4,793 nucleotides of DNA from positions 1-4,793 of the IMG/VR virus record IMGVR_UViG_2534682002_000009; one strand, 5' to 3'. The notes below the pieces were generated by a model. The model saw only the letters and a list, made by a program, of their open reading frames with translations. It made no database searches and had not been told where the DNA came from. This DNA is from a virus. Its lineage: Duplodnaviria > Heunggongvirae > Uroviricota > Caudoviricetes. This document shows positions 1 to 4,793 of the stretch, piece after piece. The position numbers and the translations under genes are program-made. Position 1 is the first letter of the stretch. Each line of letters opens with the position of its first letter.

Positions 1-668
1 TGAACCTGACCTTTTGCCCGGCGCAGCTCGCGGTTAGCCACATGCAGCGATGGTAAAATCAGCCCATCCGGATGCTTTCTGGTGAACAACGGCTGTGACT
101 GCACTGTGACCGCCACACTTTCAGTTTTTATTTCTTCCTGTGTCGTCGTTTCCTGGACTGGTAACGCAACACCTGTTGGCTGAGGAAAGGCTTTACCATC
201 GGTTTCCGCTACGGATGCAGCTTCCGGCTCTGCCGGTAAATCAGCGCCCGGTATGCAGTAACGAAATTTACCGTTCTGATTTACGCGTGCCAGGCGCCCC
301 GTTGCTGTTACGACCGCCAACGTGGAAGCAACCTTGCGAATGCTAACACCGAACTTATCCGCCAGTTCCTCACACGTTTTAGCCCCATCCTGACAGATAA
401 ACTCAATCATCATGTCCGCGGTAACTTTTTGTTCGACCTCCCCGGTCAGCACATCCGGTACTTCAGACTGTGCTGGCTGCTCTTCGGTTACCCCGGATTC
501 ACCTTCACCAGCCAGAAACCAGGTGTGACCCGTTTTATCAACAACGCCATTTTTTTTGAGTTCCCACAGTTCGTTGAGAACTTCTTCACGGCTGATATCA
601 AGCCGCGCCGCCAGTTCAACAGAATTGGCTTTACCCATCGCTTTCAGTGCATGCAATACGGTTTCCAT
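1..668 (-). CDS. Hypothetical prophage protein with two winged-helix-like repeats; 3' end runs off the window (about 222 codons visible)
   Basis: Not in the ORF track because no stop lies in the window. Minus-strand ATG at 668..666 is preceded by GGAGG with an 8-nt spacer, 29 nt downstream of the DnaC-like stop. My manual translation is open to position 3 with no stop and begins [43 protein letters not shown], with a second similar repeat ([43 protein letters not shown]). Family assignment not possible without a search. Confidence 0.55.
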
Positions 669-697
669 TAAAACTTCCTCCGGATAAAAATTACTTC

Positions 698-1438
698 TCA
701 GTTCCTGTGCTGGCTGACGTTCGGACGCCAGCTCTCCCAGTTAAACGTCACCCAGCGACCACCGTTCATGGACATGCGGTCCATCACCCGCTCGCCGAGA
801 AGTGTATTCATCGCTGCATGGTTAAGATTTGTCAGCATCCCCACACTGAGTAACGATGCCGTTCTGCGGTCAACAATCTGATTCAGCGTGACCTGCTCAT
901 TACGCGTATCCCGTTGCATGCCAATTTCATCCAGTACCAGCAGGTCAACGCCACACAATCCCTGCAAAAATTTTTCGCCCGAGTTTTTGTTGTCGTAGCT
1001 GCCATGTAACGCCAGCATCACATCCGCCACTGTTATCACAATCACACTGCGACCTTTCGCCAGAAGGTGGTTGCCAATAGCCGCCGCCAGGTGGTTTTTT
1101 CCTGTGCCAGGCCGGCCACTGAACACAAAATTCGTACAGCCGCCTTCCAGCTCTGCCGCAATGGATTTCGCCTGACTCAGGGCATGGCGCTGACCATCGT
1201 TCTGCACCCGGTAGTTACCGAACGTACACTTCCGGTGAAGCGGCTGGATACCGGAGCGGTTAATGATTTTTTCAACCCGCGTCTGATGATTCAGACGATT
1301 AACCTCCTCGCTTCGCTTACGCCCTTCAGCAAGCTGCCATTCCCGCCACTCCGTCACCGTACGGTACGGAGGGATTGCATCCTGCGGCACAAATCTGCTG
1401 ACTCTTGCCAGAACACCACCTGACGTAATGTTTTTCAT
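698..1438 (-). CDS. DnaC-like AAA+ replicative helicase loader (phage replication protein)
   Basis: 246-aa ORF with Walker A ([15 protein letters not shown]) and Walker B (LLVLDEIG) motifs. ATG at 1438, GGGGG Shine-Dalgarno about 9 nt upstream, 6 nt after the stop of the upstream O-like gene. Gene order initiator then loader is typical of lambdoid replication modules. Confidence 0.88.
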
Positions 1439-1444
1439 GATGCG

Positions 1445-2410
1445 CTACCCCCTGAAACCCGGCGGAATTTCGGTATCCGGTTCAGAAATATGATTCACGC
1501 AACGCTGCGCGGGACCACGCCACAGTCGAATAACCAGTTCATCCCATTTCTCACGGAGTTTTTCCGGGCTCTTGATGTTTTTTATCCAGAACGGATCCCG
1601 TTGTGCCCGGCTGAACATTTCGCAAATTTGTCTGTGACTTCTTCCATCCAGCATCCGCATTGTGCGCACGTCATTGGCCCACGCCGTCCAGTTGGGCTCT
1701 TTCGGTCGCGTGATCTCACCATCGTCACTGGCAGCCTGTTCGTACAGGTTTACAACCCGCCCCCAGATCCACTGCGCACATGTCAAATCCTCCCGGGTTC
1801 CCCACTGGCGTTTTTTCACGCTGAACACAACAGCATCAGGATGGCGGGTTAAAAACGCCTGTTCAGCCGTCAACTCGTCCGGTTGCGAAGCGTCCGGACA
1901 AGAGAGTTTTTTATTCTCTGTTGTATTCTCTGTTGTATTCTCTGTAGGATCATCGGGCCATTTTGACCTGATGACATTGGGCCGTTTTGAACCAATGGAA
2001 CGTTTCATTTTGACCTCTTCCATCGTGTCATTTTGACCTGATGGAGTGGCGCATTTTGACCCGATGGATTCGTTCACTTTGCCATCATCTAAAAGCGCGC
2101 TATCGTAGTTAATTGTGTAAAAATTAGTCATATCACGCTTCGATTTATTGAGCTTTTCGCTACGCAAAAGCCCCAGCGCTTTCAGACTTGCAAACGCACG
2201 CTTTAACGTTGACTCTGACCAGAACGGAAACTGTTCCAGCCATTGTTCCGTTGTGTTGTAAATCCAGCGAACGCCATCACATTCCATGCCGGAACTGGTA
2301 TCCCTCAACCAGTAATGCAGTTGCTGCAACACAATGGCTTCGTTTAAACCAATCTTCATCGCCAGCTGTGTGTTTATAACCAGCGGGCGTTCAGCAAAAA
2401 GAAGGCTCAT
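1445..2410 (-). CDS. Replication initiator, lambda O-like (origin-binding), with iterons inside the coding sequence
   Basis: Long minus-strand ORF directly upstream of the DnaC-like gene. It contains five ~23-bp-spaced iterons (1957-2067), which produce a repeated SIGSK peptide, and a 12-bp tandem repeat encoding TENTTENTTEN. Start is uncertain: the track begins at a GTG at 2452 (335 aa); I prefer the first ATG at 2410 (321 aa, MSLLFAERPLV...). Neither has a clear SD, and either overlaps the upstream gene (20 or 62 nt), suggesting translational coupling. Confidence 0.8.
   Translation of the reverse strand: MSLLFAERPLVINTQLAMKIGLNEAIVLQQLHYWLRDTSSGMECDGVRWIYNTTEQWLEQFPFWSESTLKRAFASLKALGLLRSEKLNKSKRDMTNFYTINYDSALLDDGKVNESIGSKCATPSGQNDTMEEVKMKRSIGSKRPNVIRSKWPDDPTENTTENTTENKKLSCPDASQPDELTAEQAFLTRHPDAVVFSVKKRQWGTREDLTCAQWIWGRVVNLYEQAASDDGEITRPKEPNWTAWANDVRTMRMLDGRSHRQICEMFSRAQRDPFWIKNIKSPEKLREKWDELVIRLWRGPAQRCVNHISEPDTEIPPGFRG
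1912..1947. repeat. Direct tandem repeat, about three copies of a 12-bp unit (ATTCTCTGTTGT); encodes TENTTENTTEN in the O-like protein
   Basis: Read directly: ttattctctgttgtattctctgttgtattctctgtagg. It is in frame within the minus-strand CDS and lies next to the iteron array. Confidence 0.85.
1957..2067. repeat. Iteron array, putative prophage replication origin (five copies of CATTTTGACCYGATGG-like repeat)
   Basis: Copies begin near 1959 (cattttgacctgatg), 1982 (ccgttttgaaccaatgg), 2006 (cattttgacctcttcc), 2029 (cattttgacctgatgg) and 2052 (cattttgacccgatgg), spaced 23-24 bp. They sit inside the initiator gene as in lambda ori, flanked by moderately AT-rich DNA at about 2090-2135. Confidence 0.75.
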
Positions 2411-2912
2411 AATTCCATCCGGCTTTTTGTTGGTACTGGTGACGATAGGCACGCTTGAAAGCGATTGCTTTTTCTATAAGCTCGTCTGTCTCACGTTCCA
2501 CAACAGCTGGATCTGCAAAAAGCAGCCCGGACTCCACCACATCGCCATATTCTTTGTTTAACCCGGCAATCATGTACGTAATGCTTTTTCCGTCAGTAAT
2601 TTCGCGGTACAACCTGAAATCACTAATCCGGATAGCCTCCATAATTGCCGGAATCAGCGCCGTGAATTTTTCACGCTTATCCCTGGTGTCGATAGCCTTC
2701 CAGCGTTCGAATATCTTCACCCGGTTAACGCCAAGCGCACGCTGATCAACCCCGCCATCATCAAGCGTGACACGCTGAACATCGATGTTCGGGCGTTCCT
2801 GTAGAGCCCAGAAGGCTTCAGTAATTAATATCGTCGCCTGCTCCTGCGTCATTCCTGGTCTGCATACCCAGGCATCCAGAGCCTCGCAAACCTGTTCAGG
2901 TGTGATTTTCAT
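2391..2912 (-). CDS. Hypothetical prophage early protein in the YdaT/CII position
   Basis: 173-aa ORF. Its ATG at 2912 overlaps the 3' end of the Cro-like gene by 17 nt and its 3' end overlaps the initiator start. It occupies the slot between cro and the replication genes. No motif recognisable by eye; function is inferred from position only. Confidence 0.65.
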   Translation of the reverse strand: MKITPEQVCEALDAWVCRPGMTQEQATILITEAFWALQERPNIDVQRVTLDDGGVDQRALGVNRVKIFERWKAIDTRDKREKFTALIPAIMEAIRISDFRLYREITDGKSITYMIAGLNKEYGDVVESGLLFADPAVVERETDELIEKAIAFKRAYRHQYQQKAGWNYEPSFC

Positions 2913-3174
2913 TGTTCACCGCCAGTAATTCATTCGCTGTACTCTTACGTCCACAAGGCAGGCCATCGGTTGGGTTAGGGTAAATATCTGGTCGGAGCTC
3001 GTGGGGGGTGACAGTCCACGCCATAATCTCACATAGTTGTAAAACCCTTGATGCAGGGACCTGTTGCCCATTAACCCATCGACATACAACCTGCTGTGGC
3101 AACCCAATCAAGCGAGCAACACCCGCTTGGGATAACCCTATTTGGCGAATTTTATTTTTTAAACATTTATGCAT
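2896..3174 (-). CDS. Cro/YdaS-like HTH DNA-binding protein (lytic-side regulator)
   Basis: Track ORF 2896..3210 trimmed to the internal ATG at 3174, which has a GGAG SD 8 nt upstream (minus strand ggagttagcgatATG). Predicted HTH is SQAGVARLIGLPQQVVCRWVNG. It is divergent from the repressor gene and first in the leftward operon. Confidence 0.8.
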   Translation of the reverse strand: MHKCLKNKIRQIGLSQAGVARLIGLPQQVVCRWVNGQQVPASRVLQLCEIMAWTVTPHELRPDIYPNPTDGLPCGRKSTANELLAVNNENHT

Positions 3175-3281
3175 ATCGCTAACTCCAATCAATCGACACC
3201 ACTTATACACTTTAAAAGTTACACTATCAACACTTTCAAGCTGATTGTGCTGGCTACACTTTTTTTGTGTAAAATGAATGC
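3175..3281. promoter_or_regulatory. Divergent immunity region (OR-like): candidate operators and back-to-back promoters
   Basis: Palindromic ACTTTAAAAGT at 3209-3219, and ACACT(TT) repeated at 3207, 3221, 3230 and 3256. Minus-strand candidate promoter TTGATA (plus 3225-3230), 17-bp spacer, TATAAG (plus 3202-3207), about 25-30 nt upstream of the Cro-like ATG. Plus-strand TAAAAT at 3270-3275 lies immediately before the repressor ATG at 3282. Confidence 0.55.
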
Positions 3282-3689
3282 ATGAAGCGAATGACCACTC
3301 TTGAAATAACCACGTACCGGATAAAACTGGTGCTGGAAAAAACAGGGCTTAAGCAAGCAGAACTAGCCCGCAGAATAGGTGTTGCCCAACAATCGGTCCA
3401 AAAGTGGGTTCATGGCATCACAAGCCCATCAATGGCTAATCTTGATAAACTTTCTGAAGTAACAGGATTCCCTCCATATTGGTTTATGTTGCCACCAAGT
3501 GAGGACGAACAGATTGTGGTACCTGACACAATGAAAATAGGTCCGAAGCAAAGAGAGCTACTTCAGACATTTGGTGCATTCCCAGAGGAAGAACAGGGAC
3601 AAATGCTTCAGGAGATGAAAGACAAAAAAGAGTTAATGGAGCGCACAATTGAAAGATGGCTCGCTGCCCGGAAAGGGCATCGAGCATAA
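3282..3689 (+). CDS. paaR: XRE/CI-like HTH transcriptional repressor (PaaR-like); candidate prophage repressor and TA regulator
   Basis: 135-aa ORF with N-terminal HTH (LKQAELARRIGVAQQSVQKWVHG) and no LexA-like peptidase domain. Divergent from the Cro-like gene and first gene of the regulator-antitoxin-toxin cassette. The symbol is from remembered similarity to the O157:H7 PaaR-PaaA-ParE systems and is unverified. An alternative ATG at 3291 is possible. Confidence 0.8.
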   Translation: MKRMTTLEITTYRIKLVLEKTGLKQAELARRIGVAQQSVQKWVHGITSPSMANLDKLSEVTGFPPYWFMLPPSEDEQIVVPDTMKIGPKQRELLQTFGAFPEEEQGQMLQEMKDKKELMERTIERWLAARKGHRA

Positions 3690-3718
3690 TGACCACCATA
3701 CACAGACGGAGGTGTGCC

Positions 3719-3907
3719 ATGAATACGGCCCTTTCACCAATGGTTTCTGAGTTCGAAACCATTGAACAAGAAAACAGTTACAACGAATGGCTGCGTGCGA
3801 AAGTAGCAGCGAGCCTTGCAAATCCGCGCCCAGCAATTCCCCATGACGAGGTTGAGCGCAGAATGGCAGAACGCTTTGCTAAAATGCGCAAGGAACGGAG
3901 TAAGTAG
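3719..3907 (+). CDS. paaA: Small antitoxin (PaaA-like), partner of the ParE toxin
   Basis: Track ORF 3656..3907 trimmed to the ATG at 3719, which has a GGAGG SD with about 8-nt spacing; this gives 62 aa (MNTALSPMVSEFETIEQENSYNEWLRAKVAASLANPRPAIPHDEVERRMAERFAKMRKERSK). The stop is 3 nt before the ParE ATG. Size, charged helical character and position are typical of ParE antitoxins. I recall PaaA2 as 63 aa with a very similar sequence, unverified. Confidence 0.75.
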   Translation: MNTALSPMVSEFETIEQENSYNEWLRAKVAASLANPRPAIPHDEVERRMAERFAKMRKERSK

Positions 3908-3910
3908 TAA

Positions 3911-4198
3911 ATGTTACCCGTGTTATGGCTTGAAAGCGCAGATACCGACCTAGATGATATAACTAGTTATATTGCTCGTTTCGACATAGATGCGGCAGAA
4001 CGCTTATGGCAGCGATTAAGGGGGTGTGTGCTGCCGTTATCCGAACACCCGTATTTATACCCACCAAGCGACAGAGTACCTGGCTTGCGTGAGATTGTAG
4101 CTCACCCTAACTATATAATTCTTTACCGTGTAGCCACTTTAAGCATTGAGATCGTGAGTGTAGTACACGCCAGACGCCAATTCCCCAAGCAGAACTAA
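3911..4198 (+). CDS. parE: ParE/RelE-superfamily type II toxin (plasmid-stabilisation ParE-like)
   Basis: 95-aa ORF. The N-terminal LPVLWLESADTDLDDITSYIA and C-terminal YRV...IEIVSVVHARRQFP regions look like ParE-family toxins. It directly follows the small antitoxin ORF, has GGAG about 10 nt upstream, and is followed by a terminator. Confidence 0.88.
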   Translation: MLPVLWLESADTDLDDITSYIARFDIDAAERLWQRLRGCVLPLSEHPYLYPPSDRVPGLREIVAHPNYIILYRVATLSIEIVSVVHARRQFPKQN

Positions 4199-4211
4199 CC
4201 CTTTCACAGGG

Positions 4212-4235
4212 CCGTCTCATCTCGAGGCGGTTTTT
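4212..4235 (+). terminator. Rho-independent terminator ending the repressor-antitoxin-toxin operon
   Basis: Stem 4212-4218 (ccgtctc) pairs with 4224-4230 (gaggcgg), 7 bp with one G-U pair, 5-nt loop, then TTTTT at 4231-4235, 14 nt after the ParE stop. Confidence 0.6.
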
Positions 4236-4250
4236 GTTGCTCACAACCTA

Positions 4251-4284
4251 ACTTTATAAGTGTTGACATAATAACTTTAAAAGT
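4251..4284 (+). promoter_or_regulatory. OL-like region: two copies of the ACTTTAWAAGT operator motif flanking a candidate rightward promoter
   Basis: ACTTTATAAGT at 4251-4261 and ACTTTAAAAGT at 4274-4284, centres 23 bp apart; the second is identical to the site at 3209-3219. Between them are TTGACA (4263-4268) and an overlapping TGaCATAAT (4264-4272) resembling an extended -10. Which element acts as the promoter is not resolved. Confidence 0.45.
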
Positions 4285-4469
4285 GCATCCTTGTTTCACC
4301 AACCCACCCCATTCAACAGAACGCAGGGCAATACTTCGAGTTACCCGGCAGTGGTCAGGGGTTAAGTAGCCAGCCCGAGGCGTATGAACATGACGGCGGG
4401 AACACTTTGTATAACAGCGCAGCAGGTTTTTAGTTCCGCGACCCGGCGTTAAGGGTAAATGAGGTCAAC

Positions 4470-4622
4470 ATGGATATGCTCAATCTTGGCAACAATGAAT
4501 CTCTGGTGTGCGGAGTATTCCCCAACCACGACGGCACGTTTACCGCGATGACGTATACCAGAAGTAAAACGTTTAAAACCGAAGCTGGCGCGCATCGCTG
4601 GTTAGCAAGAAACGCTAACTGA
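4470..4622 (+). CDS. Small hypothetical prophage protein (50 aa), first gene of the rightward early operon
   Basis: Absent from the ORF track. ATG at 4470 with GAGG SD 5 nt upstream; my translation is MDMLNLGNNESLVCGVFPNHDGTFTAMTYTRSKTFKTEAGAHRWLARNAN, stop TGA at 4620-4622. It is in the position of the small ydaF/ydaG-type genes next to racR in Rac-like prophages; that family resemblance is from memory only. Confidence 0.5.
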   Translation: MDMLNLGNNESLVCGVFPNHDGTFTAMTYTRSKTFKTEAGAHRWLARNAN

Positions 4623-4660
4623 TTAGCGCCAGTAAAAACAGGTTTCCACAGGTTAATTTA

Positions 4661-4676
4661 CCCTGAAAAGTCAGGG
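4661..4676 (+). other. Short hairpin, CCCTGA-AAAG-TCAGGG (boxB-like shape)
   Basis: 6-bp perfect stem with a 4-nt A-rich loop, 39 nt after the small ORF stop. No T-run follows on either strand, so it is not a canonical terminator. Confidence 0.35.
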
Positions 4677-4686
4677 CATAACACGA

Positions 4687-4750
4687 AAGCGCACGGCGAA
4701 GTTAGTCTCTCTGTATAGGTCGTCGTTAAATTTAATTCGACCGTGCGCTT
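4687..4750. repeat. Long imperfect inverted repeat (10-bp perfect arms AAGCGCACGG / CCGTGCGCTT, 44-bp spacer)
   Basis: Read directly: aagcgcacgg at 4687-4696 and ccgtgcgctt at 4741-4750. The arms extend with one bulge (cgaa / ttcga) to about 14 bp. No flanking T-run. Confidence 0.5.
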
Positions 4751-4793
4751 CTGGTTGTGGCAATCCGCGAAATGGCGCGGCGGTAAGTATGGC

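Follow-up and report, generated by a model that had tools for sequence, protein, structure and literature searches.

A repeat array inside an O-like prophage gene

The DNA analysed here, referred to as the window, is a 4,793-nucleotide (nt) stretch (positions 1 to 4,793 of the IMG/VR virus record IMGVR_UViG_2534682002_000009) that is the immunity and replication region of an Escherichia coli lambdoid prophage of the CP-933P/Rac type. On its minus strand it carries a gene for a 321-residue protein, listed in RefSeq as a 'hypothetical protein' (WP_000054520.1) and called the initiator herein, and midway through this gene lie an array of 23-base-pair (bp) iterons and three 12-bp tandem repeats, the 12-mers (Table 1). 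We consider it likely that this segment, which encodes the linker part of the initiator, is the replication origin of the prophage and is built like the origin of phage lambda.

A repeat search returned five 23-nt units (reference unit CATCGGGCCATTTTGACCTGATG) at 1951-1973, 1975-1997, 1998-2020, 2021-2043 and 2044-2066, with spacings of 24, 23, 23 and 23 nt, in agreement with an earlier note on this DNA, made from the letters alone, that had described a five-copy repeat at 23-24-bp spacing inside an O-like gene. A sixth, degenerate unit (GATTCGTTCACTTTGCCATCATC) stands in register at 2067-2089; in gene order the units are therefore 2089-2067 (degenerate), 2066-2044, 2043-2021, 2020-1998, 1997-1975 and 1973-1951. 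Their gene-strand consensus is CATCrGGTCAAAATGrCCCGATs, the arms of which are partly symmetric (outer CATC...GATG, inner GGTCA...TGrCC) and form an imperfect inverted repeat. The window holds four exact copies of the 10-mer CATTTTGACC, all of them within the array (0.03 expected; 0 of 200 shuffles reached four), and a loose search for the iteron core across the window, allowing two mismatches, found no second cluster.

The repeats cover codons 108-167 of 321. In gene orientation the six units begin in codon phases 2, 2, 0, 1, 2 and 0, and thus occupy all three frames, encoding VIRSKWP, SIGSKRP, EEVKMKR, PSGQNDT, SIGSKCA and DDGKVNE. The repeated SIGSK peptide to which the earlier note had drawn attention is present twice (residues 115-119 and 138-142), with IRSK once, but it is not a general peptide repeat, as the other copies read GQND, VKMK and GKVN. 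Since these remaining units sit in other frames, the SIGSK repeat is a by-product of the DNA repeat.

Table 1. Coordinates of the initiator gene, its parts and its neighbours in the window.
Feature	Position	Strand	Remarks
Initiator gene	1445-2410	minus	321 residues from ATG at 2410 (RefSeq start); open reading frame also opens at GTG 2452
N-domain coding part	2087-2410	minus	predicted winged-helix DNA-binding domain, residues ~10-108
Putative recognition helix	2177-2215 (residues 66-78)	minus	AlphaFold (AF2) model; profile alignment to the winged helix-turn-helix (wHTH) of 2d1h
Specificity residue S67	2210-2212 (codon)	minus	N-terminus of helix 66-78 (AF2); predicts iteron base
Upstream AT-rich stretch	2100-2135		encodes the conserved N-domain end DMTNFYTINYD
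Iteron array	1951-2089	minus	six 23-bp units
Three tandem 12-bp repeats	1910-1946	minus	ACAGAGAATACA on gene strand; peptide TENT, three times
Disordered linker	residues ~110-174	minus	between the two folded domains
Lambda-O-like C-terminal domain	residues ~185-294	minus	BLASTP to lambda O
DnaT-like tail	1448-1516 (residues 299-321)	minus	last 23 codons
DnaC-like AAA+ helicase-loader gene	698-1438	minus	directly downstream of initiator gene
cII-like ydaT	2391-2912	minus	Pfam YdaT_toxin; PHROG 163 'CII-like'; nearest-genome annotation; upstream, same rightward-type operon
cro-like ydaS	2896-3174	minus	Pfam YdaS_toxin; nearest-genome annotation; upstream, same rightward-type operon

The repeats are constrained at the DNA level

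Sixty-two distinct close relatives (N-domain identity ~73% or more) from IMG/VR and GTDB contigs were aligned. At third-codon positions, 81% of sites are variable in the N-domain and 65% just past the repeats, as opposed to 19% in the iteron 10-mers and 0 of 12 in the 12-mers. The comparison of iterons across related prophages, which the earlier note had proposed, covered 372 units from these relatives and found the core conserved: C9-A10-A11-A12 is retained in 98-100% of units, and G15 and the outer A2 and T22 are invariant. The repeats are thus constrained as DNA.

One residue of the N-domain tracks the base beside the iteron core

Within the motif F-W-S-x-X-T of the N-domain (residues 63-68), the identity of X, which is S67 in the window, tracks the base directly 5' of CAAAATG, such that S corresponds to T, D to G, K or R to A, and N to C. 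This rule was derived from 18 phages and recorded before a test set of 80 diverse GTDB loci was fetched. A scan of viral contigs had returned close relatives only (76-100% identity), which were used for the conservation statistics and were useless for testing the rule because all are of the S/T type. In the test set, 26 of 28 clusters (90% linkage) fit the rule, compared with a permutation mean of 9.1, and none of 100,000 permutations reached 26. The residue and the base also switch together between sisters: Staphylococcus L-m44 (S, GGTCA) and Staphylococcus 96 (R, GGACA) have proteins that are 93% identical, and Pantoea allii (K, A) and P. dispersa (D, G) have proteins that are 90% identical.

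The part of the protein concerned is predicted to be a winged helix. The AF2 model of the initiator has a mean predicted local distance difference test score (pLDDT) of 58.8, with residues 10-108 usable (block means 63-87) and residues 110-174, exactly those encoded by the iterons and 12-mers, below 30. The modelled N-domain has the topology helix-helix-hairpin-helix-helix-wing (helices 14-20, 22-37, 54-60 and 66-78; hairpin 42-51; long wing 82-100). Foldseek matched it to winged-helix DNA binders only, of the PadR, MarR and ArsR types, and to the RepA_N initiators 5kbj, 4pql and 4pt7, at E-values of 0.03-0.2 overall; the RepA_N matches (0.04-0.15) rank with the best but are no better than those to the generic winged helices, and because these values are weak we assign no family from them. 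In a profile search of the PDB the best match was the alignment of the helix-wing part to the wHTH of 2d1h from Sulfolobus (E 0.054), sequence and profile searches of the PDB found no solved relative of the N-domain, and 16 N-domains scanned against families gave only sub-threshold, generic wHTH matches (PadR, MarR, Crp). Together these data support a winged-helix fold for the modelled N-domain. The covariation, the sister switches and the predicted position of S67 at the start of the recognition helix support the hypothesis that the N-domain reads the iterons.

The initiator joins a lambda-O-type C-domain to an unrelated N-domain

The initiator matches PHROG 391, 'replication initiation O-like' (E 8e-91), but no NCBIfam family and, even at E-values up to 10, no Pfam family. 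BLASTP against lambda O gave 35% identity (E 7e-25) over residues 140-294 (~155 residues), with no match anywhere in the N-terminal half, and neither the N-terminal Phage_rep_O domain of lambda O (PF04492) nor RepA_N (PF06970) was matched in the initiator by Pfam search. As the match to lambda O is confined to the C-terminal part, the protein is a mosaic of a lambda-O-type C-domain and an unrelated DNA-binding domain. The label 'O-like' given in the earlier note therefore suits the C-domain, which is homologous to that of lambda O, but not the N-domain, and a protein with a lambda O-type N-domain is ruled out by the lack of PF04492.

The last residues of the initiator (299-321; GPAQRCVNHISEPDTEIPPGFRG) resemble the extreme C-terminus of DnaT (SEPDxxIPPGFRG), a primosomal protein of the host. 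With phmmer, the tail alone matched the DnaT chains 6aep, 2ru8 and 9zbt in the PDB (E 0.007-0.025), and the DnaT model NF002770 scored 17 bits on the initiator against a cutoff of 201, with no full-length match. Some phage records name such proteins DnaT; this identity was rejected because only the last 23 residues match. The tail may mimic a DnaT contact for helicase loading, judging from this likeness, and recent preprimosome structures assign no role to the DnaT C-terminal tail. The PxGFRG ending is kept in relatives from Klebsiella, Pantoea, Hafnia and SfIV.

The 12-mers are conserved at the DNA level

The 12-bp tandem repeat that the earlier note had placed on the downstream side of the iterons was recovered there by Tandem Repeats Finder (1912-1945, period 12, 100% matches) and by exact counts: ACAGAGAATA occurs three times on the minus strand and, with one single-mismatch site elsewhere, gives 4 matches against 0.13 expected. 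This stretch (gene nt 469-504) has a GC content of 0.28, and 81% of its sense-strand bases are purines. The earlier note had not counted it as AT-rich, yet the DNA over these repeats (1900-1949, GC 0.275-0.325) is as deep an AT-rich stretch as the one around 2100-2149.

Beyond the window, the motif ACAGAGAnTAC was found in 70 of 86 distinct relatives, with a spacing of 12 nt in 103 of 116 cases, and 48 of the 70 motif-bearing relatives have their first copy beginning 18-21 nt past the final iteron core. Since the motif is nearly always read as T-E-x-T (174 of 186 copies), frame alone cannot separate a constraint on the peptide from one on the DNA, but codon choice can. The glutamate codon is GAG in 156 of 168 cases within the motif versus 580 of 1,221 elsewhere in the same genes, and the first threonine codon is ACA in 152 of 155 versus 229 of 1,094. 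The same codons are chosen in GC-rich Pseudomonas and AT-rich Staphylococcus phages, the synonymous sites of the 12-mers are fixed in phages from Staphylococcus to Pseudomonas, and Bacillus phages carry the motif at 10-11-nt spacing, hence in two reading frames. Judged by these comparisons, the 12-mers are a DNA-level element tied to the module of N-domain and iterons.

The most economical reading of the sequence is that the 12-mers, together with the A-run that extends to ~1905, would act as the unwinding and entry element. So strict a conservation of sequence also points to specific recognition, like that of the 13-mers of oriC and RK2. We tentatively raise the possibility, to which we give somewhat less than even weight, that the 12-mers do more than melt easily and form a second site of sequence-specific recognition in a large and unnamed class of phage origins. 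Their conservation extends from phages of Staphylococcus and Bacillus to those of Pseudomonas and E. coli, and they accompany the N-terminal winged-helix domain, not the domain that would recruit the helicase. By analogy, one possibility is that they serve as a strand-specific capture or helicase-entry site, with a role like that of DnaA-trios or of the RK2 13-mers.

A similar sequence is found in lambda itself: one TCAGAGAATTC, resembling the ACAGAGAATAC motif, lies in the linker-coding part of the lambda O gene (nt ~476-486), just past the AT-rich tract, and BLASTP pairs the lambda residues SSENSGESS with TENTTENTTEN. This likeness may be due to chance or be a remnant of common ancestry.

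The layout corresponds to that of the lambda origin

The earlier note had proposed a layout opposite to that of lambda, with the AT-rich stretch upstream of the iterons relative to the direction of the gene. To place both genes on the same scale, the lambda O gene, with iterons taken from the NC_001416 annotation, and the initiator gene were run through the same script. In lambda, the iterons span nt 349-433 and the least stable 36-bp window follows directly at 439-474 (GC 0.19; sense strand 75% purine). The iterons of the initiator gene span nt 345-460 and the adjacent unstable window, at 469-504, is that of the 12-mers. Strand asymmetry is an established property of the lambda tract (PMC5043065). 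The 12-mers are thus AT-rich, purine-skewed and on the same side of the array as the lambda tract, contrary to the reversed layout. In 16 of 19 relatives the gene as a whole is least stable at the array end or just past it, on this downstream side. While the GC content of the flanks over 70 nt did not separate the two AT-rich sides, 36-bp stability windows, strand bias and synonymous-site variation do. On these sequence comparisons we favour an arrangement that is the same as in lambda.

The N-domain, iterons and 12-mers are inherited together

A tblastn search with the N-terminal 112 residues retrieved 155 phage records, with hosts that include Escherichia, Klebsiella, Erwinia, Pseudomonas, Providencia, Staphylococcus (49% identity), Bacillus, Listeria, Vibrio, Stenotrophomonas and others. 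The module of N-domain, iterons and 12-mers occurs across 4,188 protein clusters at E <=1e-5, from phages of Gram-negative and Gram-positive bacteria, and has no Pfam family. All phages inspected carry three to six repeats with a 22-23-bp period and a CAAAATG-like core just past the N-domain coding part, although in Pseudomonas phage AF only about two degenerate copies can be made out. Two to four tandem copies of ACAGAGAnTAC follow the iterons in most of these phages, and the order N-domain, iterons, 12-mers recurs in phages of Escherichia, Klebsiella, Pantoea, Erwinia, Providencia, Pseudomonas, Staphylococcus, Bacillus and Listeria; in Hafnia, Vibrio and Stenotrophomonas phages, iterons are present and the scan found no clear 12-mer repeat. 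A Staphylococcus phage is 85.5% identical at the nucleotide level to window 2005-2066, with the rest of the gene unalignable as DNA.

The C-domains and partner genes vary across the family. Staphylococcus phages have a DnaD-like C-domain and a DnaB-like helicase, and phage AF has a primase-helicase. In mEp460_ev081, Klebsiella ST147-VIM1phi7.2 and SfIV, no loader gene follows the initiator; the next genes in the loader-less phages are LygF, a Dam methylase or PerC. Since several phages with the same initiator lack a loader gene, the DnaC-like gene of the window is an optional partner, and the loader-less relatives presumably use host DnaC.

Phage SfIV has its C-domain in common with the window, together with a different N-domain, iterons of 15-bp period and no ACAGAGA repeats, and its homology to the window begins directly after the last 12-mer. 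Because a mosaic boundary separates them from the C-domain, the N-domain, iterons and 12-mers form one inherited module, which is also present in the deposited genomes of mEp460_ev081 (88.7% nucleotide identity), PhiR42_1 and HannyBb. The boundary lies at window 1874-1914, where a shared TCTCGTCCGGACGCTTCGCAACCGGAC starts in SfIV and mEp460_4F5, phages with different N-domains.

Genes and sites around the initiator gene

The chromosome of the bovine strain OkiPb01681 is 99.2% identical to the window and base-for-base the same over 1900-2140. On the plus strand, the window encodes a paaR2-like repressor, a paaA2-like antitoxin, a parE toxin and a DUF1391 gene; the minus strand carries the cro-like ydaS, the cII-like ydaT, the initiator gene, the DnaC-like AAA+ gene and a DUF1627 gene. 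In an mBio study of CP-933P, the gene in the initiator position was named a homolog of the o gene, with no origin studied there, and the same order, with cro-like and cII-like genes before the initiator, was reported (PMC8630535).

The ydaT and initiator genes overlap by 20 bp in the window (2391-2410). In some 448-residue proteins (P0004, P0007 and P0010) a YdaT part (PF06254) is joined to the initiator; these are probably products of gene calling or frameshift, although they could be real fusions. The protein encoded downstream of the initiator scored 474 bits with NCBIfam PRK12377 (cutoff 389) and matched Pfam IstB_IS21 and PHROG 50, 'DnaC-like helicase loader'. Since its score with the DnaC equivalog model, 303 bits (E 1e-90), falls under the cutoff of 357, it is DnaC-like and not DnaC itself.

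A three-gene toxin-antitoxin module of the paaR2-paaA2-parE2 type occupies the cI position on the plus strand (3291-4198) and consists of a helix-turn-helix repressor, an antitoxin with a PaaA2 Pfam domain (E 3e-19) and a ParE toxin, as in prophage CP-933P. At 4623-4661, ~720 bp of the nearest genomes (L001 7624-8342), including a 369-bp hypothetical gene, are absent and replaced by ~37 bp.

Between the cro-like gene and the repressor gene lies a divergent promoter region (3203-3273) with a 9-bp tandem, ACACTATCA, at 3221-3239 and a promoter-like TTTACA-18-CACAAT on the minus strand (3273-3244) that alone is not above chance. A 29-nt imperfect inverted repeat has one arm at 3192-3220 and the other at 2665-2693. 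These elements are probably operators. A promoter and terminator scan of 1400-3300 returned nothing above shuffles, and no internal promoter within the origin. We propose that transcription from the promoter region near 3244-3273 proceeds through the origin.

Comparison with known origins

As a kind, the element is a known one, an origin embedded in its own initiator gene, with an initiator family that is unnamed and widespread in phages. Proven origins with iterons inside the initiator gene are those of lambda (PMC7466680) and of the RepA_N plasmids (PMC5703833). In lambda, as in the Stx phages 933W and P27, the origin likewise lies midway in the initiator gene, which follows cro-like and cII-like genes, and dyad-symmetric iterons spaced by 20-24 bp are followed by an AT-rich tract whose purines lie on the sense strand (PMC7466680, PMC5043065). 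The array begins at nt 349 of the lambda gene and at nt 345 of the initiator gene, and the C-domains are homologous. The element has three properties of a lambda-type origin, namely a place in the linker-coding segment, at least four phased iterons that are imperfect inverted repeats, and an AT-rich, strand-asymmetric tract after the last iteron, while the initiator has the C-domain of the lambda O family without its N-terminal PF04492. Lambda differs in the sequence of the N-domain, which is unrelated, and of the iterons, and it has four iterons of 18 bp where the window has six units with a strict 23-bp period. Unlike in lambda, the AT-rich tract of the window is made up of three exact 12-bp repeats with a sequence that is kept across phyla, a DnaC-like gene takes the place of P as the partner, and the initiator carries an extra DnaT-like tail.

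The theta plasmids of the RepA_N type (pSK41, pTZ2162), from Gram-positive bacteria, follow a comparable three-part plan, in which an N-terminal winged helix (~120 residues) binds repeats placed centrally in its own gene, the central linker is encoded by origin DNA and the C-domain is host-specific (PMC5703833). They also have an A-tract in the middle of the binding site, as in the window. The initiator differs in having no PF06970 match, in belonging to a phage, and in its C-domain, which is lambda-O-like and not DnaG-binding. Like the 12-mers, the 13-mers of oriC and RK2 oriV are short AT-rich tandem repeats adjoining an array of initiator sites; they depend on their precise sequence, number and arrangement, and the initiator captures one of their strands (PMC5043065). 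The 12-mers share with them the tandem arrangement, the strand skew and the constraint on sequence, but the motif (ACAGAGAnTAC) and the period of 12 are different, the repeats lie within a coding frame and the initiator is not an AAA+ protein.

The Rac prophage oriJ of K-12 was considered as a described counterpart and ruled out, as YdaU is a DUF1376 protein of another family; the oriJ literature added nothing on the window element. Our literature search, which covered only a minority of subscription journals, found no description of this origin class, and an earlier one, for example in a review of phage replication modules, is possible.

A model of the origin and its alternatives

By computation, the repeats exist, are constrained as DNA, co-vary with the N-domain and match the geometry of lambda. 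From this we infer iteron binding, melting, helicase recruitment and actual replication, in the following manner. The N-terminal winged-helix domain would bind the six iterons, with the start of the recognition helix, around S67, reading the base beside the core CAAAATG. The resulting nucleoprotein complex would destabilise the adjacent AT-rich, purine-skewed 12-bp repeats (~1905-1946), which lie promoter-distal of the iterons, as in lambda, and whose single strands may be held sequence-specifically. The C-domain, homologous to the P-DnaB-recruiting domain of lambda O and here carrying a DnaT-like tail, would then bring in the host helicase through the DnaC-like loader, and transcription from the cro-side promoter would cross the origin, as in lambda. 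The lambda-type iteron origin that the earlier note had proposed is thus supported by the DNA-level conservation, the use of three frames, the linker position, the covariation and the homology of the C-domains.

We think it unlikely that the unwinding region is instead the upstream stretch at 2090-2135, which would make the origin mirror-inverted relative to lambda and the 12-mers accessory or purely coding. The AT-rich stretch seen by the earlier note does exist (GC 0.25-0.33 around 2100-2149), it holds the least stable 36 bp of the gene (2100-2135, GC 0.25, z 3.1 versus 2.7 at the 12-mers), the same place ranks second or third in several relatives, and a relaxed DnaA-box-like 9-mer, TTTTACACA, lies within it (2114-2122, minus strand). 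It nevertheless does not support a reversed layout and evolves like plain coding sequence: among the 62 relatives its GC content ranges from 0.25 to 0.47, with the window at the extreme, and its third-codon sites vary as freely as those of the N-domain (78% versus 81%). Its composition is explained by the conserved N/Y/I/F/K-rich protein motif encoded there, its purine fraction is 0.50, without strand bias, and in the 16 of 19 relatives mentioned above the least stable part of the gene lies beyond the iterons, on their downstream side. The two relaxed DnaA-box matches in the window (the other at 3266-3274) are at chance level (26 of 200 shuffles), and lambda, too, has a secondary minimum upstream of the iterons (nt 268, z 1.9), although it unwinds elsewhere.

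Less probable still, in our estimation, is that the iterons are genuine initiator sites serving autoregulation, copy control or exclusion, by roadblock or titration, with replication starting elsewhere. The covariation and DNA-level conservation prove a protein-DNA relationship and not replication, plasmid iterons also serve copy control (PMC5043065), and some Bacillaceae relatives without in-gene iterons indicate that the N-domain can use sites elsewhere. Such a role is, however, at odds with the AT-rich, strand-skewed stretch at a fixed distance after the array, with a position and order that match lambda's experimentally defined origin almost nucleotide for nucleotide, with the same layout at the proven origins of lambda and the RepA_N plasmids, and with the lack of any other iteron-like cluster in the window. 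That the repeats are a low-complexity coding linker produced by slippage or duplication, without DNA function, we regard as very improbable. The encoded segment is predicted to be disordered and the TExT peptide is in one frame nearly always, but the iteron units use three frames with no conserved peptide repeat, synonymous positions are frozen in the iteron cores and 12-mers and free around them, an iteron base co-varies with a residue 50 codons upstream, and the Bacillus phages have the 12-mer motif in two frames.

Several observations weigh against a lambda-like origin at this site, or against parts of the evidence for it, beyond the stability minimum at 2100-2135. The residue-base rule has exceptions (L172 and L177) and mixed arrays (Bacillus BhaS171 and Listeria PLM34), the iteron finder presumed a core of the CAnnnTG type, and the clusters that were permuted are only partly independent in phylogeny. 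In about 11 relatives on Bacillaceae chromosomes the N-domain comes without in-gene iterons; since no CAAAATG-type iterons follow the N-domain there, its binding sites, if any, are elsewhere. These iteron-less loci are on Neobacillus and Bacillus chromosomes (L151-L168, L173 and L176), and L159 keeps ACAGAGAnTAC repeats. The overall AF2 model (mean pLDDT 58.8) and the Foldseek matches (E 0.03-0.2) are weak. The 12-mers are only moderately AT-rich (GC 0.28-0.38), and a plain unwinding element leaves their strict conservation unexplained. The prophage may be cryptic, so that the copy in the window might never fire, and our literature search found no experiment on any family member.

Implications

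With the origin placed at ~1905-2089, a gene annotated as a hypothetical protein in RefSeq becomes that of a likely initiator, and the prophage region beside the paaR2-paaA2-parE2 module gains a defined replication module. The residue-to-base rule predicts which origin an initiator would fire, and it bears on the compatibility or exclusion of co-resident prophages and on the engineering of phage replicons. Most worth following are the conserved 12-mer and the rule by which a single residue predicts specificity: if the 12-mers are indeed a second recognition element and the one-residue rule holds, origin specificity in this class would be predictable and reprogrammable.

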